A stretch of 64,000 nucleotides of DNA, taken from IMG/VR virus record IMGVR_UViG_3300021197_001546; one strand, given 5' to 3'. The notes beneath the pieces were generated by a model. The model was not told the DNA's origin, ran no database searches, and saw only the letters and a program-made list of their open reading frames with translations. This stretch comes from an uncultured virus (IMG/VR IMGVR_UViG_3300021197_001546). Its lineage: Duplodnaviria > Heunggongvirae > Uroviricota > Caudoviricetes. This document shows positions 18,650 to 36,687 of this stretch, in pieces (position 1 is the first letter of the stretch; the number at the start of each line of letters is the position of its first letter). Both the position numbers and the translations under genes were made by a program.

Positions 18650-18664
18650 TACTATTTAGGAAAA

Positions 18665-18750
18665 TACGGTCGGTGGGACTCGAACCCACAAGAGGTTTTA
18701 CCCTCGTCGGATTTTAAGTCCGATGCGTATGCCAATTCCGCCACGACCGC
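18665..18750 (-). tRNA. tRNA-Leu(UAA)
   Basis: Cloverleaf GCGGTCG...CT-TAA-AA, long variable arm, GTTCGAGT; no encoded CCA. Confidence 0.93.
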
Positions 18751-18902
18751 AACTTATTCAACGAATCTTCTTACCGTTTCCAGACCGAGAAGTTCGTGAT
18801 GCTGCATTTCCCTTTCGGGAGGGCTTCGCCTTCTTGGAGCCCTTCATCATGTTGTTAACGTGCTTAGACTGCTGTGAATTCATCTTTGCCATCGTGTTCC
18901 TT

Positions 18903-19268
18903 TCATAGAAGTTCAATACCTGAATTGGTAGTATAGTAGATTCTGTCGAAGAGTGCAATAGACCAAGGTAAACAAAATCTACAAGGTTTACTCATTCTCA
19001 TGTCACCGAATCTATTGTATCTAAAATTGAGAAGTGCTAAATTATCTTTCGGTCCTTTGTAACGAAGAAGTGCATCCAATTCGGAATGCACTTCATCGAA
19101 TCTATAACCATACTTCTTTGCCATCGGGTGCGTGCGAAAGTGGTTCGTGCCAACCGACACGATCTCGTTCTTTCGAACGATAATCGAAACATGCTTCTTC
19201 GGTCTCGGGATCTCTAGAGACACAGGAAGAGCGACATCTTTCACTTTATTAATGGTTCTAAGATTCAT
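18903..19268 (-). CDS. Cytidine/deoxycytidylate deaminase-like zinc protein
   Basis: HSELDAL (HxE) and SKPCRFC (PCxxC). Confidence 0.8.
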   Translation of the reverse strand: MNLRTINKVKDVALPVSLEIPRPKKHVSIIVRKNEIVSVGTNHFRTHPMAKKYGYRFDEVHSELDALLRYKGPKDNLALLNFRYNRFGDMRMSKPCRFCLPWSIALFDRIYYTTNSGIELL

Positions 19269-19416
19269 GATTAAAAAGTACCCTGCGTTATTACAGACAA
19301 ATGCGCAGCCCTCGTGTTCTTTATAGTGCAGATCGGATCGTTCATGCTAACTCTTGCCATACGAGATTCGCAAGTATACGGCACACTACCTAAGAGCGAC
19401 TTAGGATTTTCAACAA

Positions 19417-19489
19417 CTCCACGGGCTGGACTCGAACCAGCAACCTTGCGGTTAACAGCCGCACGCACTACCAATTGTGCTACCGTGGA
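19417..19489 (-). tRNA. tRNA-Asn(GUU)
   Basis: TCCACGG...GCGGCT-GTT-AACCGC...GTTCGAGT...CCGTGGAG. Confidence 0.93.
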
Positions 19490-19509
19490 AACACTGCCCT
19501 CCGAAGGAA

Positions 19510-19583
19510 CACGGGCGGCAGGACTCGAACCTGCGACCTGCGGATTAGAAGTCCGCTGCTCTATCCAACTGAGCCACGCCCGC
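19510..19583 (-). tRNA. tRNA-Arg(UCU)
   Basis: GCGGGCG TGGCTCAGTTGGATAGAGC...CT-TCT-AA...GTTCGAGT. Confidence 0.93.
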
Positions 19584-19589
19584 TTATGT

Positions 19590-19895
19590 CTACTCGGTTA
19601 GAGTAAGTGCTGGCCCGCTCACGGTTCCCTTGGGAGGAACAACGAGACCGCTACCGAACGCCGTGTTATACTCATTCATGAGTTCATCGTGGGGCTTGAT
19701 ACTGAAGAGAATGAAGTTCTTCGAGATCGTAATAGGCCCATCATGATCCGCATAGGGGAGCCACGGAGCAAGTCCAATACTCTGATTTCCCGTAGGAAGA
19801 ATCAGACAGGGTTTTTCAATCTTGAATTCGGTTTCCTCTTCAGTCACCGTTGCGAGAATCTCTTCGCCGCTTGTCAGTCGTAGAATCTTTACCAT
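19590..19895 (-). CDS. Conserved T4-like small Sm/LSm-like protein
   Basis: KILRLTSGEEILA...GLAPWLPY...YNTAFGSGLVVP. Confidence 0.7.
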   Translation of the reverse strand: MVKILRLTSGEEILATVTEEETEFKIEKPCLILPTGNQSIGLAPWLPYADHDGPITISKNFILFSIKPHDELMNEYNTAFGSGLVVPPKGTVSGPALTLTE

Positions 19896-20007
19896 TGGTT
19901 TTCTTTCCTTTTTTCTTTCCGAAAATTGCTTCGTAGTTCTTGGAATACGCTTCCCGATCTACTTTCCTATATTTATCACCTTTACCCGCACCGTGTTGTC
20001 CACCCAT
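19840..20007 (-). CDS. Small basic hypothetical protein
   Basis: GAGGAG RBS, ATG 20007, GAGKGDKYRKVDREAYSKNYEAIFGK. Confidence 0.6.
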   Translation of the reverse strand: MGGQHGAGKGDKYRKVDREAYSKNYEAIFGKKKGKKTNGKDSTTDKRRRDSRNGD

Positions 20008-20088
20008 ATTCAGTCTCCTCAAAAGAAAACCGCCGGCGAGTTCCAAGCAGCCGAAACCGTGGTCGCCCGCCGGCGGTGTTGATTTAAT

Positions 20089-20279
20089 GGGACTCAGGGT
20101 TATTGTATACCTGAAGAAAGCAGCACGAACGTACAATGTCAGTAGTAACCTGCTTCCACCACTCCACACATCCCGCTAAGGATCATCTCATACAAGCATT
20201 TCTGCATCATACGGACAGGTCGCTAAACCATTTGGAGTTTGCACTATCCCCATTCGTAGAGGATTATTATGCGAGTCCC
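20089..20279 (-). ncRNA. Candidate ~190-nt multi-helix structured RNA
   Basis: GGGACUC/GAGUCCC closing helix with several internal stems; own promoter upstream and a hairpin plus U-run downstream. Confidence 0.6.
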
Positions 20280-20335
20280 GTGTGGGAGGTAATTAGTCTC
20301 CCGCACATTATTTCTTATTCACTTGTCATACGAGT

Positions 20336-20363
20336 ATTATACTCGTAGTGGTGGGTTTGTCAA
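20336..20363 (-). promoter_or_regulatory. Sigma70-like promoter
   Basis: TTGACA-N16-TATAAT. Confidence 0.8.
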
Positions 20364-20385
20364 CCCTGTTCTCAAACTTTTTTTC

Positions 20386-20547
20386 TCACTCCTTCCGCCA
20401 CGGACAAGAAGGTCCGATCAGCAGAAGAGTAGGAACCCAAAGACCGATGAAGGTTCCGAGAGTTGCATCCGTCTGGTAAACCCAGATAGAAAGAAGAATT
20501 GAAATGAACGCCAAAATGTAAAGAATCTTTCCGAATACCTTAAGCAT
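20386..20547 (-). CDS. Small two-TM membrane protein (53 aa)
   Basis: MLKVFGKILYILAFISILLSIWVY...GTFIGLWVPTLLLIG; AGGAG RBS. Confidence 0.65.
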   Translation of the reverse strand: MLKVFGKILYILAFISILLSIWVYQTDATLGTFIGLWVPTLLLIGPSCPWRKE

Positions 20548-20550
20548 GTT

Positions 20551-21150
20551 CTACTCCTTGTTCCAAAGAACATTCAATGTCTTATCATAAACCATGAGGA
20601 AGCGATGCTTCCTACTTCTATCGCGCCACTCTCCGTCGAGTCCGCTCATCTTACCTCTACTATGCTTGACGAATGATCCGTCTTCCTGTTTGATCCAGAA
20701 GTCTTTCTTCGGCGCCGTCATTCCATAGTAATCAAAATTTGCTGCTCTATAAATGGTTCCTTCGTGGTAGTCGGCGTCTGCGTAACTCAGGACCGCTCTA
20801 ACCATAGTTGTCTGTCGCAACCTTCGCAGACATCTCGAAACGAACCATGTCGCCATATTTTTTTCACTTCGTTGGATGGAGGGGTGCAGACACAACCTGC
20901 TAAGTTCAAAAAGCCCGTCCTGTTGATCACGTTGTAATCCGAAGGCTGACTGGGCCAATTCGGGAACTGGTAGTCCCGTGAAAATACATACCCCAAGACT
21001 TCCTTCTGATGAGATTGGTTCGTCTTTGAAGAGTCCATAATTGTATCCAGACTTGAAACCTTTGGAGTGATCCTTGAGATAGTGATACTGAAGGAGCAAG
21101 CCCTCCGCATCTTTCTTACCGATCGGATCAATAGTGAAATCACTTTTCAT
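20551..21150 (-). CDS. Mom-like (GNAT-fold) DNA modification protein
   Basis: YHYL...ELSRLCL...WFVSRCLR...VLSYAD...HEGTIYRAANFDYYG. Confidence 0.8.
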   Translation of the reverse strand: MKSDFTIDPIGKKDAEGLLLQYHYLKDHSKGFKSGYNYGLFKDEPISSEGSLGVCIFTGLPVPELAQSAFGLQRDQQDGLFELSRLCLHPSIQRSEKNMATWFVSRCLRRLRQTTMVRAVLSYADADYHEGTIYRAANFDYYGMTAPKKDFWIKQEDGSFVKHSRGKMSGLDGEWRDRSRKHRFLMVYDKTLNVLWNKE

Positions 21151-21152
21151 AA

Positions 21153-21225
21153 AGCGGGTGAACGGACTCGAACCGTCAACATTTAGATTGGAAATCTAAC
21201 ACTCTACCAATTGAGTTACACCCGC
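21153..21225 (-). tRNA. tRNA-Gly(UCC)
   Basis: GCGGGTGTAACTCAATTGGTAGAGT...TT-TCC-AA...GTTCGAGT...CACCCGCT. Confidence 0.93.
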
Positions 21226-21284
21226 ATAAAGAGGGAGCCAGGTGCCCCTCCGACACCTGGCTCCCGTACTACTCGTTCTGAATA

Positions 21285-21554
21285 TCAGAGAGAGTAGCGG
21301 TTACCTTCGGCGTCGTAACCGTAGGTTCGACTGCCAGGATGGGTATCCTCCATGAAGTAACGGGTCATGCCCGTAGCGGTGGACTGGCTGGTGATTTCCC
21401 AGTTACCGAACGCCTCGACCTGCGAACGAATGTCGCTGATGGTGGCTCGAAGGTTACCGACACCGAAGCGGCTCTTGGCTTCGTTCGGAGTGAGTCCCTT
21501 GCCGCTGGCGAGGTAGTTGATGACACGGCGCTTCTTGGTGAGAGTGTTGTTCAT
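21285..21554 (-). CDS. Small helix-turn-helix protein
   Basis: VINYLASGKGLTPNEAKSRFGVGNLRATISDIR. Confidence 0.75.
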   Translation of the reverse strand: MNNTLTKKRRVINYLASGKGLTPNEAKSRFGVGNLRATISDIRSQVEAFGNWEITSQSTATGMTRYFMEDTHPGSRTYGYDAEGNRYSL

Positions 21555-21636
21555 AACACAATGCTCCAGTTGTGGATGCTTGTTTAAGGTTAAGAGTCTT
21601 GGAATCGCATCCGTGTTCCTTGACTCGACTTCGTAT

Positions 21637-21664
21637 ATTATACAGTGGTTGAACGGTTTGTCAA
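21637..21664 (-). promoter_or_regulatory. Sigma70-like promoter
   Basis: TTGACA-N16-TATAAT. Confidence 0.8.
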
Positions 21665-21838
21665 CCCTTTGGGGTAGTTTTTCGCAATAAAGTTCATCAC
21701 GATTTGCTTCGCGTACTGTTCTGCCGAAACATTATTCTCGGCGGCAATGTCGATAAGAACATTGATGTGTTCTTGTGGCAGTTGCATGGTGACGGGAAAA
21801 TTCATGAGTTCAGATTTCTCAATTTGAGTGTTTTCCAT
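21638..21838 (-). CDS. Small hypothetical protein (possibly ribbon-helix-helix)
   Basis: VTMQLPQEHINVLIDIAAENNVSAEQYAKQIV. Confidence 0.5.
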   Translation of the reverse strand: MENTQIEKSELMNFPVTMQLPQEHINVLIDIAAENNVSAEQYAKQIVMNFIAKNYPKGLTNRSTTV

Positions 21839-21840
21839 AA

Positions 21841-21913
21841 TGGCTCCGCTGGGACTCGAACCCAGAACGTTCGGCTTAAAAGGCCGCTACTCTACCAATT
21901 GAGTTACAGAGCC
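21841..21913 (-). tRNA. tRNA-Lys(UUU)
   Basis: GGCTCTGTAACTCAATTGGTAGAGT...CT-TTT-AA...GTTCGAGT. Confidence 0.93.
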
Positions 21914-22132
21914 AGTGTGCGGGTGGCGAGTCCGCGTAACGCCAGGGTTTGACCTAAGATCCCTAAACTTGGATGCCTGTTGATTGTTCCGAGTAAGTCG
22001 ATCGAACTCGGGCTGGGGAGAACCCCCAACGGTGCCTATAGTATATCCATAGGTTAATCATACATAACGGACAAAAGTTTAAATGTGTTTCAGGTCGGTC
22101 CAAGTCATCACTGTCTCCGTTGGTGAGTCTTT

Positions 22133-22160
22133 ATTATATCATCATCGGATGGTTTGTCAA
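22133..22160 (-). promoter_or_regulatory. Sigma70-like promoter
   Basis: TTGACA-N16-TATAAT. Confidence 0.8.
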
Positions 22161-22166
22161 CCCACT

Positions 22167-22739
22167 TCAGGAAATTCCCGAAGAAAACCAATCAGGCATT
22201 TGTGAGGGTTGCTTCCATGTGGCAAAACGACGCTTCTCCATGATGTAGTATCGCCTATAGGCAACAATAGAGGCACGAATAGAATTGCCTGGTACTTTGC
22301 AGTGATCAGGCATAGCCTGTGGAAAGGCAGTCTGTCTGTGGTCCTCTGGAATCCCCGATGGGGGATAGCACTGACACCACTCAATGAGGGACTGGGATCC
22401 GTGTCTGCGTCCGTAGCGTCTCGTATACTCGTCACAGAGAGCGAGACCGTGGTCTGCGAGCCAGCGGTAGTTCCCCAGCGTCTCCCGCGCCCAGATGGTG
22501 CAGGGGTGGTTCATCATAGTAGCACGATAAAGCAGAGTGTTGTCAGCCTCATCAGTCGGATGCGACCATCGCTGAATACGCCTGCCATTCTTCGAGTAAT
22601 CAATGTAGGGATCTCCATCGAGCATACGGTGAACCGTCGAGAGCATTTGTGCCGTCTCGACAGGCATTTTGACGACATGCTTGTCGCACATCTCACGGGC
22701 AGATTGAAAAGGTGAATCGTGAAGGGCAAAGATGTTCAT
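22167..22739 (-). CDS. Pyrimidine-dimer DNA glycosylase (DenV-like)
   Basis: MNIFAL...CDKHVVKMPVETAQMLST...NHPCTIWARE...EYTRRYGRRH...PQAMPD. Confidence 0.85.
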   Translation of the reverse strand: MNIFALHDSPFQSAREMCDKHVVKMPVETAQMLSTVHRMLDGDPYIDYSKNGRRIQRWSHPTDEADNTLLYRATMMNHPCTIWARETLGNYRWLADHGLALCDEYTRRYGRRHGSQSLIEWCQCYPPSGIPEDHRQTAFPQAMPDHCKVPGNSIRASIVAYRRYYIMEKRRFATWKQPSQMPDWFSSGIS

Positions 22740-23104
22740 TTCGGAAGTGGTGCCTCATAGAAGACTTTGATGTTTAGTGCCTTTGCAAGTGCCAACTCCG
22801 CATTGGCACCTTTGCTCTTTTCCCAACCAGACATCATATAGATCGCTGTGCAATCGTCACAGATCGCAACCATGTCTCGCTTGAGAGCAGCACGCATGAA
22901 TTCGTGATCCTCGTAGCAGTTGTCGGGATCAAACTCGTATGATGGTGATGTGGGTTTGCCTTGATCACGGTCAAGTTCTGCTGGATTGATTACATGCCAA
23001 CCCTGCTCCAGAAGCACACGGGCGCATCGGTCGAAGGCAGGGTAGTTGTAGTTCTCGAACCCACGCATGGGTCCAGCAACATAAATTGTTGGTTCTCGTT
23101 CCAT
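22736..23104 (-). CDS. Nucleoside 2-deoxyribosyltransferase-like (DUF4406-type) protein
   Basis: IYVAGPMRG..NYNYPAF...INPAE...AIYMMSGWEKSKGANAE. Confidence 0.85.
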   Translation of the reverse strand: MEREPTIYVAGPMRGFENYNYPAFDRCARVLLEQGWHVINPAELDRDQGKPTSPSYEFDPDNCYEDHEFMRAALKRDMVAICDDCTAIYMMSGWEKSKGANAELALAKALNIKVFYEAPLPK

Positions 23105-23120
23105 GATAAAAAATCTCCAA

Positions 23121-23193
23121 TGGGTTGGGGGAGACTCGAACTCCCGAAAATAACGTTATAAGCGTTACTGCTGATGCCATCCGCTTCCAACCC
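23121..23193 (-). tRNA. tRNA-Ile(UAU) with atypical D-arm
   Basis: GGGTTGG/CCAACCC acceptor, TAACG-CTTATAA-CGTTA anticodon arm, GGGAG-TTCGAGT-CTCCC T-arm; A at position 8. Confidence 0.8.
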
Positions 23194-23203
23194 TCACATA
23201 CGA

Positions 23204-23231
23204 ATTATAGTATACAGATCGTGCTTGTCAA
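23204..23231 (-). promoter_or_regulatory. Sigma70-like promoter
   Basis: TTGACA-N16-TATAAT directly upstream of tRNA-Ile. Confidence 0.8.
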
Positions 23232-23245
23232 GAGGTTTCCTCAAA

Positions 23246-26200
23246 TTATGGTGCAGGAACATCAAAAACGGACGCTGCATTCGCTACGCTAGTAGGCACA
23301 ACCATCGTAACCAGCGTATCCTCTACAGCCCAATTCTGGGGAGCGAACCAGGCAGAGTAGTTACCACCCGCCAGGTCGTACCCGAAGTGGTTCGCTCCAA
23401 CATTCTTGGCATTCTCTTCTGCTTTCATTCGACCAACCACGGCGCCGTCTCGAATGATCTCGTAGACTAGTGTCTGTTGAGACCCGATTGACGAATTCAG
23501 ATTGTAGTACGAACTCGTAATGGTGGGGAGATTGGTGTTGAAGGTAGGGCCGTCATTGGCTGGAGCATACAGAACATAGATCTCAGGGAAGTTATAGGAC
23601 TCATCCGTTCCATTCCCATCGACATCGGCGTTCGCACTTAGCGAAGTATATGTCTGATTGCCATCGCCATCGGTGAAGTCGGGAGCAGAAAGAACATCAA
23701 AGGTTCTTAATGATGATGTGGCTGGAGGCGTAGTGTGCCTTGCAGAACCTAGAAGGTCTGGGTGGCTGTTCTTATCGAAGACCTCGACCATATCGGGTGT
23801 CAAGAACTTGTGACCAATATTGTCACCATAGAAGCCAGGGTTGAACTGACCATCGAAGTTTATAATCTTGATCATCATAATTGAGTCTGCATTGATGTTG
23901 GCAGTATCGGTTTCGAACATCACTGAACCAGAATTGGCCGCGTTGGCTGTTCCTGATCCTTCTGTACCATCACCAAATATCTCATCGATCACTTCACCTC
24001 CGCCTCCGCCTCCACTAGACTCAGGAATTGGGATGTAATCAATGTCGAAGAAGAATTCCGACTCACCGAATACTTGTGTGCCGTTGTCGTTCTGCGTGCA
24101 GTTGTTGAAAATATGATTACGAATATCTTGCATTACAGATGCTGAAAGTATATTTGTCGCCACGCCGCCGAAGAAGGTGTTTCTCCATATAATACTATGT
24201 CCACTACTGGCAGAGTCTTCTTTAATGTACGAAAGACTGCCCGAAGGTAGTCCTTCTGCACTAAATGTGTGTGTAGAAACTACCGACCCATCTGCGGCCC
24301 GAATAGTAAGATTGATTCCATAGAAATTGTCAAACCACAAATCTCGTCTAGCCCTATTAGTCGTATTAAACGCTCCGAAGAGGAGTTTTATTTGGGCACC
24401 GATCGTCTCACCAGCGTCATCATTGAGATCAAGGAACGATAAACTGTTTATGTCAATGTTCCCATCAACGTTGGTACCGGAGTCTCCTTCGGCTACCGAG
24501 GGAGGGAAATGATTCGTCGAATCCGTAAATTCGTCACCCTTTGTTTCGCTAATAGATGTGAAGTTGTCAACATTCCCGTATGGATCGGTGTCCGAAAGTC
24601 GGTCTTCAAAGTAACTGAACTTCATTTGATTGTTGGCGCCGACATCGGGAACATCGTTGACATCGACTGCACTGGTGATCGCGGTGTCCACCACGACGCC
24701 GTCGCTGTTGTTTAACTCAACACGAACTAGAAGTTGTTCGCTACCACCAGAACTAACTTCAGGAACTGTAAAGTCGGCACTAGAATTGCTGCTGAAATCC
24801 TGAGAATCGGCAATATCCGAGGAGGTAGGGAATCTTAATTCAAATCTATACTGAGGATTCACAACATCCGTAGATGTTGCTCTTGCCGTAATCGTTGTTC
24901 CCTCATTCACCTCAGTTGGGTTCCCATCAATAGTGACATTGACAGTTCCCACAGTATCTGGTTGAACGGAGAAACTCTCGCTAAATGTTACACTATCGGT
25001 GCTACCATCGTCAGTATCTAAACTATTTACAATCGTAAGTTCTGCGACGAAGTTCTGTCCTTCGGTTCCCTGTGGAATAGGAGCAGTCAGTCTACCGTCA
25101 GGTGTCGTGCCCGATCCTGTCCAAGTGAACGTATCTAGTACAGTACCATCAAGAGAATAAGTGACAGTGAATTGATCATTGTCAAGAATAGTTGTGACGC
25201 CGTTTCTTCTCGGGACACCATCCATGGCACCATGATCAAACTGAAAGGTCTCGCCCTCTCTGATAAATGGTGCGTTTATGATAGTAAATGCTGGGAATGC
25301 TGGATCATTAATATCATCCATGACAACATACGGAGTTTGAATTTGCCATGTGTAGGTAACGGTGAGAGGATCACCAGCAGCATTATCGACAACGTGAATG
25401 ATCTGATCATTTTCGCTCTCAGTAATTGCCGATCCGCCCGCTGAATCCGAGATATAAGCATCAGTCAGTGTAACTTCAATGAACGATTCATTATCAGGAT
25501 ACGTTAGTTGATCATCGGGAGTTTGTGCAATCGTATTTTCATCCCAACTGGAAGCACGAACAAGAAGATTACATTGCTGGTTTCCCGTTGTGTGGGCCCA
25601 TTGGGCGATATCGAGAACATCTACCTCAAAAACATTTCCTTGATTGCTATTTTGCTGGGTAGTGAATGCTGTGTTCGAAATTTGAAATGTGGGGTGTCCA
25701 TTTTCAGGAATGGCTGGGTCGTGTATGCCGTCAATGAGTAGAGCATACCCACCACCAGAAATACCATAACCGATATGACCGTAATATTCCTCGGGAGCGC
25801 CTGGATCTCCATCGATTGTGTTGGATCCAGTGGTGGTGAAGTTACCAACGTTAATTTGCTCTTCCATTTTATCCGACGGTTCGGGTCGATCAAACCTTCT
25901 GGTATTTTGTCCAACACCGATTGGATTCGGAGGAAGTATTCCGCCCGCCATTCTCCACCACCGTTTGCCTGGTTCAGGTACTACAACAATGCCGGTACCT
26001 GTATCAAACGGAACTTCTTTCTCATCTCCATCTTTCGTATTCCATGTAGCATTCTCATTCGAATCTTGAGGAAGAACTAAGATCTCTGCATTGACCGCCG
26101 AAGGCCAAATATTAGCAGTAGTGTTTTCCCCATAGAGATCACCGAGATCTTGATCGTATGGTGTCATATCTAATTTGGCTTCGGTGATGATGGCACCAGC

Positions 26201-26623
26201 AGGGATCCCAGAAAGATCAAAGTACAGGGCACTTCGAGAAGGACCAACTTCAGTATAGGTTAACGCACCACTGATGGGTGGTTGATGAATACCACCCGAT
26301 CCCTCGACTGGTGAACCAACAGGATTACCACCGTTACCTTCTTGTACAACATTGCTGTTGGCACCTTCTACATTCTCAGTAGCGAGTCCAACAGCGAGCC
26401 AAGGTTCCGTTTTATAATTTGTATCATCACCTTTAACACAAGTTAGACTCTCTGGATCCAAGACAATATCGGGATCCATAAGAGGACTACCCTTATAGTG
26501 CAACGTTGTGTCCCCGATTGGGTTGAGACAAACCTCAACGGCTTCGGGTGTTGGTATTACATTTTTCTTTCTCTTTGCCCGATCTTGACGAAAACTGGGC
26601 TTTAATTCTCTTAATGCCGCCAT
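23246..26623 (-). CDS. Large acidic putative virion protein with DNRLRE-like and Ig-like domains
   Basis: SRSALYFDLSGIPAGAIITEAKL...ENATWN; Ig-like VNEGTTITARAT...PQYRF; TATACATA upstream at 26650-26657. Confidence 0.7.
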   Translation of the reverse strand: MAALRELKPSFRQDRAKRKKNVIPTPEAVEVCLNPIGDTTLHYKGSPLMDPDIVLDPESLTCVKGDDTNYKTEPWLAVGLATENVEGANSNVVQEGNGGNPVGSPVEGSGGIHQPPISGALTYTEVGPSRSALYFDLSGIPAGAIITEAKLDMTPYDQDLGDLYGENTTANIWPSAVNAEILVLPQDSNENATWNTKDGDEKEVPFDTGTGIVVVPEPGKRWWRMAGGILPPNPIGVGQNTRRFDRPEPSDKMEEQINVGNFTTTGSNTIDGDPGAPEEYYGHIGYGISGGGYALLIDGIHDPAIPENGHPTFQISNTAFTTQQNSNQGNVFEVDVLDIAQWAHTTGNQQCNLLVRASSWDENTIAQTPDDQLTYPDNESFIEVTLTDAYISDSAGGSAITESENDQIIHVVDNAAGDPLTVTYTWQIQTPYVVMDDINDPAFPAFTIINAPFIREGETFQFDHGAMDGVPRRNGVTTILDNDQFTVTYSLDGTVLDTFTWTGSGTTPDGRLTAPIPQGTEGQNFVAELTIVNSLDTDDGSTDSVTFSESFSVQPDTVGTVNVTIDGNPTEVNEGTTITARATSTDVVNPQYRFELRFPTSSDIADSQDFSSNSSADFTVPEVSSGGSEQLLVRVELNNSDGVVVDTAITSAVDVNDVPDVGANNQMKFSYFEDRLSDTDPYGNVDNFTSISETKGDEFTDSTNHFPPSVAEGDSGTNVDGNIDINSLSFLDLNDDAGETIGAQIKLLFGAFNTTNRARRDLWFDNFYGINLTIRAADGSVVSTHTFSAEGLPSGSLSYIKEDSASSGHSIIWRNTFFGGVATNILSASVMQDIRNHIFNNCTQNDNGTQVFGESEFFFDIDYIPIPESSGGGGGGEVIDEIFGDGTEGSGTANAANSGSVMFETDTANINADSIMMIKIINFDGQFNPGFYGDNIGHKFLTPDMVEVFDKNSHPDLLGSARHTTPPATSSLRTFDVLSAPDFTDGDGNQTYTSLSANADVDGNGTDESYNFPEIYVLYAPANDGPTFNTNLPTITSSYYNLNSSIGSQQTLVYEIIRDGAVVGRMKAEENAKNVGANHFGYDLAGGNYSAWFAPQNWAVEDTLVTMVVPTSVANAASVFDVPAP

Positions 26624-26660
26624 AGATGATCTCCTATTGGAACCATCATTATGTATATAA

Positions 26661-26731
26661 CTGTCCCGCCTAGATTCGAACTAGGACTGTTTGTACCAAA
26701 AACAAAAGTGCTACCATTACACTACGGGACA
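26661..26731 (-). tRNA. tRNA-Gln(UUG)
   Basis: TGTCCCG TAGTGTAATGGTAGCAC...TT-TTG-GT...GTTCGAAT...CGGGACAG. Confidence 0.9.
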
Positions 26732-26739
26732 AATCTCAT

Positions 26740-27048
26740 TCAACCCTCATCAGAAGACACGAAATCGAACTCAGTTTGGTTCGGATCTTCTTTACTCAAG
26801 ACAATACTACACTTCTTATTCATGACATGACCATTCTCATTCACACGAAGATAGTTTGACTTCTGCCGATCAAGATCATTGCCGAGACGGTAGTTCACCT
26901 GCAAGAGACCGGCTTTGTCAATGATAGGCCACCCTCCCTCGGAAGTGAAGGAAGACATAATTTCTTCCGCATGTTCTACCGCTCGGTCCTTGTCATGTCC
27001 AACTGGAATATCAATGTGAAGTCGGTAACCATTAAAATCACTCATCAC
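26740..27048 (-). CDS. Hypothetical protein
   Basis: Coupled ORF. Confidence 0.6.
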   Translation of the reverse strand: MMSDFNGYRLHIDIPVGHDKDRAVEHAEEIMSSFTSEGGWPIIDKAGLLQVNYRLGNDLDRQKSNYLRVNENGHVMNKKCSIVLSKEDPNQTEFDFVSSDEG

Positions 27049-27280
27049 GCTTTTCCTTTCGCCGTGCTTTCGGCCTTGCTTTATACGATCTTGGTGTTTC
27101 CTTCGTCATGGGAAGATTCTCTCTCATGAGTAACATAACCTTCGCAAGATCTTTGTATCCTATTTCATCCAGAAGATACTTCTCGTAAGCAATGACCGCG
27201 GCTTCGCCAATCTCGATAAGATCTTCTAGCCAACGATCTCTGTCTTCGGGATAACTAAACGAATCTTTCTTCTTAGCCAT
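27038..27280 (-). CDS. Hypothetical protein
   Basis: AGGAG RBS; 80-aa ORF. Confidence 0.6.
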   Translation of the reverse strand: MAKKKDSFSYPEDRDRWLEDLIEIGEAAVIAYEKYLLDEIGYKDLAKVMLLMRENLPMTKETPRSYKARPKARRKEKRDE

Positions 27281-27341
27281 CTGTGATCTCCTTGAATCAC
27301 AGTCGTCACTTTATCATACTATAAAGACTGTATGGATATGT

Positions 27342-27566
27342 TTACGCAACATTCTCTAAGATAGATTCACGGGCTACCATGGCGGCAATCTCTGATATTG
27401 TTTCTGGTATTTCAATTGTATCTAAGTGATCGTATCTACAACAAACATATTGAATGCAGTCATAAATCTCTTTCGAGAATTTGACAGGGATATACTTATC
27501 CCCATGCTTTTCGAATACGCCATAGTCACCATCGTACCAGTCTACACCTACAAATTTACCAGCCAT
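27342..27566 (-). CDS. Hypothetical protein
   Basis: GGAGG RBS; 74-aa ORF. Confidence 0.6.
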   Translation of the reverse strand: MAGKFVGVDWYDGDYGVFEKHGDKYIPVKFSKEIYDCIQYVCCRYDHLDTIEIPETISEIAAMVARESILENVA

Positions 27567-27577
27567 AATGGGCCTCC

Positions 27578-27835
27578 TTAGATTAGAAGTTGTGGTGTGG
27601 AAAACTTATTGACCGAGTCTACACGGAACGATCGCCACTCTTGGAGATCAGTATCGAAGACACGGACAGTATCAGGATTCGGTGGGGTAGGAGAAACTTC
27701 CGTCAGTTGCTGACGTTCGGGAAGACGATCGGGATGAAGTGTACAATGCATCTCTCGCATCGAACCATCCTTCTTTTCAAAGACCACCGTACATACGCCT
27801 CGGTGAAGTTGATCTACCATTGTTTCTCTGTTCAT
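27578..27835 (-). CDS. WYL_2/SH3-fold small protein
   Basis: VCTVVFEKKDGSMREMHCTL...VFDTDLQEWRSFRVDSV. Confidence 0.8.
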   Translation of the reverse strand: MNRETMVDQLHRGVCTVVFEKKDGSMREMHCTLHPDRLPERQQLTEVSPTPPNPDTVRVFDTDLQEWRSFRVDSVNKFSTPQLLI

Positions 27836-27884
27836 AACTCACTACTCCTTTTTATTTAGGGTTATGGATACTGTTGACACAGAA

Positions 27885-27912
27885 ATTATAACACCATTTT
27901 AAAATCTGTCAA
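27885..27912 (-). promoter_or_regulatory. Sigma70-like promoter
   Basis: TTGACA-N16-TATAAT. Confidence 0.8.
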
Positions 27913-36659: not shown

Positions 36660-36687
36660 TTGACATATCCTCTCGTTATGGTATAAT
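36660..36687 (+). promoter_or_regulatory. Sigma70-like promoter
   Basis: TTGACA-N16-TATAAT with a TG extension. Confidence 0.8.

Follow-up and report, generated by a model that had tools for sequence, protein, structure and literature searches.

The minus strand of the window, the whole 64,000-nucleotide stretch of viral DNA analysed here, encodes a real structured RNA that is a divergent, uncatalogued branch of the manA family (RF01745). In a cmscan search the complete Rfam manA model (positions 1-192 of 192) aligned to 20305-20084 with 49.1 bits (E 1.4e-11 on 601 bases; 1.5e-9 on the 64-kb window), and the alignment keeps every manA helix, in the family order. An earlier note, made from the letters of this DNA, had pointed to a likeness to manA with the motifs possibly in a different order. 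The full-length covariance-model match bears out the likeness, and the order of the helices proved to be the same as in manA. The gathering threshold of RF01745 is 55.2 bits, of which the window falls short; at the Rfam curated thresholds only tRNAs are listed for the window, and standard annotation therefore overlooks this RNA. On the 601 bases around the element no other Rfam family was found at E ≤ 10, barring two chance-level matches. The earlier note held that a full-length Rfam match would take away the novelty of the element: the match does lower it, but it is sub-threshold and falls on a separate branch that the catalogue lacks. From the manA consensus signatures compared (GGGaGUG, CUGAAUAA, the GUGGUG loop, GGUAUACA.UAAUCC and CCUCCCAC), the window keeps GGGA, AUAAUAA, GGUAUACAAUAACC and UCCCA, and is altered in its junction strands and at the GUGGUG and UUACCAG loops. 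Four motifs of the branch gave no match in the 2010 manA seed alignment, where gap characters could mask them.

Table 1. Features of the manA-type transcription unit and of the two reading frames that follow it
Feature	Position in the window	Strand	Remarks
Sigma-70-type promoter, TTGACA-N16-TATAAT	20363..20336	minus	12/12 consensus match; -35 box TTGACA 20363-20358, 16-nt spacer, -10 box TATAAT 20341-20336
A-rich 5' leader	20307..20329	minus	un- or weakly paired in folds; conservation below that of the core
5' hairpin, 9 bp, GUGCGGGAG/CUCCCACAC	20306..20280	minus	one C-A mismatch in the window
manA-type core, 191 nt	20279..20089	minus	Rfam alignment, consensus fold and pair counts
Closing stem GGGACUC/GAGUCCC	20279-20273 / 20095-20089	minus	
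First hairpin inside the closing stem	20272-20241	minus	
Junction stem	20238-20233 with 20166-20161	minus	bears three hairpins
Junction hairpins	20229-20218; 20216-20185; 20183-20170	minus	GAAA loop 20202-20199 in the second
Long hairpin	20156-20117	minus	
Terminal hairpin	20113-20096	minus	
Intrinsic terminator	20077..20021	minus	12-bp G+C-rich stem (20077-20066 with 20040-20029), inner UUCG-capped extension, then U-run UUUUCUUUU (20029-20021)
Small basic ORF, 55 aa, GKGD...NYE.IFGKK	19843..20007	minus	GAGGAG ribosome-binding site 20020-20015
Sm/LSm-fold protein (DUF6561)	19590..19895	minus	directly before tRNA-Arg

The element is flanked by transcription signals of its own (Table 1). The promoter described earlier was confirmed with all its positions and, judging from the sequence, transcription probably starts near 20329. 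Six perfect TTGACA-N16-18-TATAAT sites occur in the 64-kb window against 0.01 expected from shuffles. Five of these, all minus-strand and spread over 20336-27912, head short units within the tRNA region, and the sixth is on the plus strand at 36660-36687. The promoter scan gave no second minus-strand promoter between 20336 and the downstream tRNA-Arg and tRNA-Asn genes. At the other end of the RNA, an 11-nt spacer separates the 3' end of the closing stem from the terminator hairpin. Of the terminator as first described, the 12-bp stem and the U-run stand, whereas the UUCG caps the inner imperfect extension and not the 12-bp stem. The minimum-energy fold contains both the core and the terminator, at pair probabilities of 0.996 and 0.998, and in folding of the nascent transcript the 5' arm of the terminator pairs locally only, without pairing to the core. 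A mutually exclusive sensor/terminator pairing, as in a riboswitch platform, was looked for by folding and not found.

Folding supports the minus strand, the one favoured from the beginning: its fold reaches -103.6 kcal/mol (z = -3.91) and none of 100 shuffles was as good, whereas the plus strand gives z = -1.02, equalled by 18 of 100 shuffles. About ten G-U pairs of the consensus would be A-C mismatches if read on the plus strand. The 5' hairpin and the closing stem lie on the minus strand where they had been placed, and the energy fold, like the consensus fold built from 15 relatives, reproduces all the inner helices named earlier. Pairing of AAUGG (20232-20228) with the CCAUU of the 3' tail (canonical GGUGG/CCACC) as a pseudoknot was rejected: it competes both with helix 6 and with the closing stem, which never varies, and it does not hold in several relatives. 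In agreement with the earlier statement that no credible ORF covers the element, only mechanical ORFs of 27-109 aa overlap the region; the relatives L070 and L033 carry single-base deletions inside the element that break any frame, and coding is thus ruled out.

Relatives of the RNA were collected by scanning a degenerate pattern of the 3' hairpin over IMG/VR. The 84 loci obtained comprise 15 of the window's branch (14 full and one cut) and 69 of canonical type. The 15 branch loci are 87-96% identical to the window across the RNA, and 95% in the core, with both flanks unalignable. Two further scans with core motifs added 15 real contigs; three candidates (L120, L135 and L138), matching the 16-mer hairpin only, were discarded as chance. 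A covariance model, R1, built from 15 sequences and run on 33 sources, finds 30 copies including the window, the 29 further loci being on IMG/VR viral contigs; 24 of the copies are distinct. When these 24 are aligned, 98.6% of the cells are paired, and compensatory changes on both sides are found in 25 of the 69 pairs. The covariation score is 0.266, as against 0.06-0.08 with slid partners, and was reached by none of 500 shuffles. The compensatory changes affect all nine pairs of the 5' hairpin, including the one that is a C-A mismatch in the window, five of the six pairs of the junction stem, and also the long hairpin; the closing stem and two small hairpins are invariant across the branch. 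The GAAA of the helix-7 loop is present in 22 of the 24 distinct sequences, the exceptions being L109 and L103.

The two models separate the branch from the rest of the family. With R1, branch members score 251-278 bits; its remaining 31 matches are canonical manA loci and score 9-34 bits. With RF01745, nine of ten canonical loci score 153-177 bits (L021 was unmatched) and nine of ten branch loci 46.5-54.9 bits. For further real members, a single Rfam search at E ≤ 1 recovered three of 14 (45.7-51.5 bits) and missed the remaining 11. The Rfam manA model hence misses a whole clade of its family. A quick RF01745 search of five related contigs, which recovered one of the five known copies, is excluded from these counts. 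Eleven exact 17-mer matches in bacterial and archaeal genomes were all due to chance, and a weak partial match (L150, 14 bits) is an ordinary terminator hairpin. The branch, in this survey, is restricted to viral contigs.

In canonical manA the helices are the same in number and order. The 5' hairpin is followed by the closing stem (GGGA.../...UCCC), one hairpin, the three-hairpin junction, the long hairpin and, last, the terminal hairpin with its GGUAUACA.UAA.CC. Canonical and branch RNAs are alike carried by marine T4-like phages, have a near-consensus promoter just upstream and display a covarying complementarity between their last two hairpins. Under the Rfam model the branch scores some 100 bits less, below the threshold. 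The differences cluster in the central junction, where the middle hairpin has grown to 13 bp and ends in a GAAA loop. The GUGGUG loop gives way to a hairpin with the loop U[UAGC]G, which is present twice (20229-20218 and 20183-20170). This loop is invariant in 24/24 distinct sequences, and a complementary partner for it, sought within the RNA, was not found. The surroundings differ as well, since the branch RNA is followed by a terminator and sits in tRNA/tmRNA clusters, whereas canonical copies mostly lie 21-50 nt before start codons, without a terminator, as leaders would.

The window belongs to a T4-type myovirus, as indicated by a gp5 OB domain and the T4 tail-tube cap. Its baseplate tail-tube cap protein shares no more than 31% identity with that of any cultured phage, which places the carriers of the branch far from the cultured cyanophages, and the DNA of the region gave no match against 50,697 phage records. 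The RNA is located among the seven minus-strand tRNA genes of the window (18664-26732). In the window and in all five relatives with long flanks, it is embedded in the tRNA cluster in the orientation of the tRNAs, with tRNA-Lys/Gly on one side and tRNA-Arg on the other. A tRNA gene is found within 600 nt in 11 of 15 branch loci and in 18 of 69 other loci, and the 34 tRNAs found are all co-oriented with the RNA. The next gene varies among relatives and may be the small basic ORF, tRNA-Gly, tRNA-Glu, tRNA-Gln or another small ORF. The promoter of the window recurs, again perfect, 20-27 nt 5' of the start of the RNA model in 16 of the 30 branch loci. The other 14 lack it, and in some of them the RNA directly follows another stable RNA gene. 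In L103 it begins 17 nt after a phage tmRNA without a promoter of its own, and L110 is similar; the same-strand tmRNA genes directly upstream are at 63-405 in L103 (129 bits) and 276-358 in L110. A hairpin of -25 kcal/mol or below occurs within 75 nt 3' of the RNA in 25 of the 30 branch loci, a count made without a random-window control. These downstream hairpins have no common sequence; some are accompanied by a U-run, and other loci have a tRNA at 55-66 nt.

Among canonical-type loci, a promoter matching at least 11 of 12 consensus positions is present at the RNA start in 46 of the 53 loci with enough upstream sequence. The next gene in the 69 loci is gp32 (35 loci), a tRNA within 51 nt (14), a small acidic protein (7), DUF6561 (3), a glycosyltransferase (2), PurS (1), or another or none (7). 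The manA element precedes gp32 by 28-93 nt of A/U-rich spacer in those 35 loci (L001, L003, L006, L010 and 31 more); the gp32 of L001 was identified by Pfam with E 1e-39. The placement recalls gene 32 of T4, which has a structured, self-regulated leader. In the 14 loci abutting a tRNA (L002, L004, L008, L012, L013, L018, L020, L026, L036, L041, L051, L062, L077 and L079), a co-oriented tRNA-Asn, -Gly, -Asp or -Tyr begins 7-51 nt after manA, too close for an expression platform to fit in between; a mere 2 nt separates the Rfam manA match of L012 from the tRNA match. The literature search found no paper linking manA with gp32 or gene 32 and no mention of manA beside tRNA genes, and both placements bear on the function of the family. 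Two of these loci also have a glnA RNA (glutamine riboswitch) above threshold about 240-290 nt upstream of the canonical manA, at 144-192 in L012 and 1015-1063 in L077.

For sixteen years manA has been filed as a probable cis-regulator with no known ligand. The branch described here supplies a natural transcription unit, with promoter and terminator, detached from mRNA and placed among tRNA and tmRNA genes, and this placement argues for an RNA that works in the cell as a free molecule. Given the frequent promoter of its own, the terminator that does not overlap the fold and the tRNA/tmRNA cluster, the element is most likely a free-standing RNA. In the model that we propose, a host-type early promoter would drive the synthesis of a structured RNA of about 300 nt, and the intrinsic terminator would end the transcript. 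The 224-nt body (20309-20086), corresponding to the divergent manA branch, would be released as a free-standing stable molecule and would not work as a 5'-UTR switch. In the window the terminator would define its 3' end; in relatives where the RNA abuts tRNAs or a tmRNA, tRNA-processing enzymes would do so. The compact fold would then bind copies of itself by loop-loop contacts, as canonical manA does in a cryo-EM preprint of July 2026 (10.64898/2026.07.01.735769). A free-standing manA-type RNA gene whose product self-associates like canonical manA is, in our judgement, the probable reading.

The original proposal for manA was a different one, a riboswitch-like leader or attenuator acting in cis. 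Here the RNA would sense a metabolite or a protein and set the read-through of the 20077-20021 terminator, thereby controlling the small basic ORF, the Sm-like gene and tRNA-Arg/Asn. We regard this as unlikely, though it has several observations on its side. The promoter scan detected no other promoter-like site on the strand between 20336 and the downstream tRNAs, so that tRNA-Arg and tRNA-Asn may need terminator read-through. Some read-through is therefore likely, which leaves space for a cis role. The small basic ORF occurs within the downstream flank of about 500 nt in many branch loci, and canonical copies stand just before gp32, PurS, DUF6561 and other genes. A classical riboswitch, however, requires a structure that competes with the terminator, and there is no alternative pairing between core and terminator in the window. 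The terminators are wholly different among relatives beside an invariant core, which makes a conserved antiterminator impossible; this, together with the coexistence of core and terminator, is why the element is read as a free-standing stable RNA. Its position is not that of a 5'-UTR either, as the terminator stands between the RNA of the window and the next ORF. In relatives a tRNA comes next or a tmRNA abuts the RNA, and the 14 canonical-type loci with a tRNA 7-51 nt after the RNA speak in the same sense. Rfam and Weinberg et al. 2010 (PMC2864571, in the part available) classed manA as a likely cis-regulator, but no ligand of manA is reported in the literature found.

The RNA could also act on the polymerase that transcribes it. 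RNAs of the kind known from HK022 put and the Bacillus EAR element promote processive antitermination, and a promoter-proximal manA-type RNA might likewise carry its own polymerase past the terminator and through the hairpin-rich tRNA cluster. The near-consensus promoter at a fixed short distance (46/53 canonical-type and 16/30 branch loci), downstream genes of any kind, tRNAs included, and a strong terminator placed directly after the RNA and before genes without a detected promoter would all fit such a role. Against it, 14 of the 30 branch loci are promoterless, some lying directly behind another stable RNA gene, and the known antiterminator RNAs are far smaller than the multi-junction manA-type fold of 190-225 nt. 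The property found for manA in the available part of the preprint, self-assembly, is quite a different one, and we consider antitermination improbable. The last alternative, that the element is no functional RNA but a fortuitous fold, the remains of a mobile element or an overlooked gene for a small protein, could appeal to the mechanical ORFs of 27-109 aa that overlap the region. It is contradicted by the 25/69 covarying pairs, the 95% identity of the core next to unalignable flanks, the frame-breaking deletions and the full-length match to a curated RNA family, and it hardly deserves credit.

For the free-standing RNA, self-association is suggested by the properties of canonical manA. According to the available part of the cryo-EM preprint (10.64898/2026.07.01.735769), manA builds RNA-only assemblies, namely an icosahedral cage of 60 subunits as well as decamers and octamers. 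Their building blocks are pentamers, held by the kissing loops L5-L7', L8-L9' and L3-L8' and by a GNRA loop-receptor contact. Assembly was observed in vitro, and that part of the text gives no biological role and does not mention tRNA. In 42 of the 44 distinct family sequences that we aligned, the loop of the last hairpin has its complement at a constant position in the penultimate hairpin, and the letters differ from subgroup to subgroup: AUUGUA/UACAAU in the window's branch, and UCGUA/UACGA, UAAUGUA/UACAUUA or ACUGUA/UACAGU elsewhere. Taken singly these complementarities are short, shuffled loops being as good in 3-60% of trials, and they partly overlap a predicted stem. Our guess is that they correspond to the L8-L9 contact of the preprint. 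The loop of the 5' hairpin, ACUAAUUAC in the window, contains the self-complementary UAAUUA, and a self-complementary stretch of at least 4 nt (UAAUUA, GAUC etc.) is present in this loop in 24/24 branch and 8/20 canonical sequences. The covarying loop complementarity, the GAAA loop and the self-complementary 5' loop are consistent with the assembly described in the preprint, and self-assembly of the branch RNA is plausible. The branch unit gives exact ends for assembly constructs.

Downstream of the terminator, the small basic ORF found no family match in Pfam, PHROG or NCBIfam, and its homologues lie within the downstream flanks of about 500 nt in many branch loci. Its 3' end overlaps by 53 nt the start of the Sm-like ORF, which matches Pfam DUF6561 below threshold (E 3.3e-4) and PHROG 527 with E 2e-19. 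The predicted model of the latter protein (pLDDT 78.8) has an Sm fold; its best natural Foldseek match is the Sm-like 3BY7 (E 1.6e-6, TM 0.70/0.91). The row of RNA, small basic ORF and Sm-like gene recurs in the window and six branch contigs. DUF6561 is also the first ORF after canonical manA in L039, L050 and L083, and follows manA and two tRNAs in L026 and L041. In five cultured cyanophages, by comparison, the nearest above-threshold DUF6561 gene lies about 5-27 kb from the single detected manA, within 3 kb in none of the five, and the linkage to the Sm-like gene is therefore not general. The row before tRNA-Arg, together with the solved Sm-like relative, described in the accessible text as a pentamer and still uncharacterised (PMC3710371, PMC12152347), gives rise to a further idea. 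An RNA-protein particle might be built, in which manA-type RNA in five-fold blocks, like those of canonical manA in the preprint, is capped or nucleated by the Sm-like protein, with the terminator U-tail as a handle. Early in infection, stable RNAs or a host factor would be sequestered or protected by such a particle. We mention it as a very speculative proposal, with little chance of being right.

Stable RNAs other than tRNAs are known from the tRNA regions of other phages. The large structured ROOL and GOLLD RNAs, whose genes often lie close to tRNA genes in phages or prophages, are reported to form RNA-only multimeric cages; the theme is like that of the manA cages, but ROOL and GOLLD far exceed manA in length and are separate Rfam families. 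In T4, rnaC and rnaD (species 1 and 2; NC_000866), of 139 and 119 nt, are non-tRNA stable RNAs that lie on the tRNA strand at the end of the cluster, abutting tRNA-Arg, which is the same kind of placement as that of the window's RNA. They were rejected as relatives for lack of likeness in sequence or structure: R1 with filters off gave nothing above 8 bits on the T4 region, and the Rfam manA model did not match rnaC or rnaD.

Sequence words from the element are also present in RNA libraries. Among 24 runs from 21 studies, 22 are on record as RNA and contain 13-36% of the sampled words. Contigs of all four runs examined cover the core, partly, and two of them continue upstream past the -10 box; as evidence of transcription these contigs are weak and cannot prove it. 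A contig of 252 nt and depth 10 runs into adapter sequence at 20298, where it ends. The flanks at 19950-20077 are uncovered, but as relatives differ there this is uninformative on the transcript ends.

Other genes and a possible gene remnant accompany the RNA in the tRNA region. In L019, L015, L005 and L080, about 10-125 nt after the RNA and before tRNA-Gly, a stretch contains GGTTCGACTC, which resembles a tRNA T-arm, and may represent a decayed tRNA or another small RNA. In the window, the tRNA genes of the minus strand are interleaved with genes for a Mom-family protein (PF25680, E 5e-21; 20551-21150, minus) and a pyrimidine-dimer glycosylase homologue (PF03013; 22167-22739, minus).
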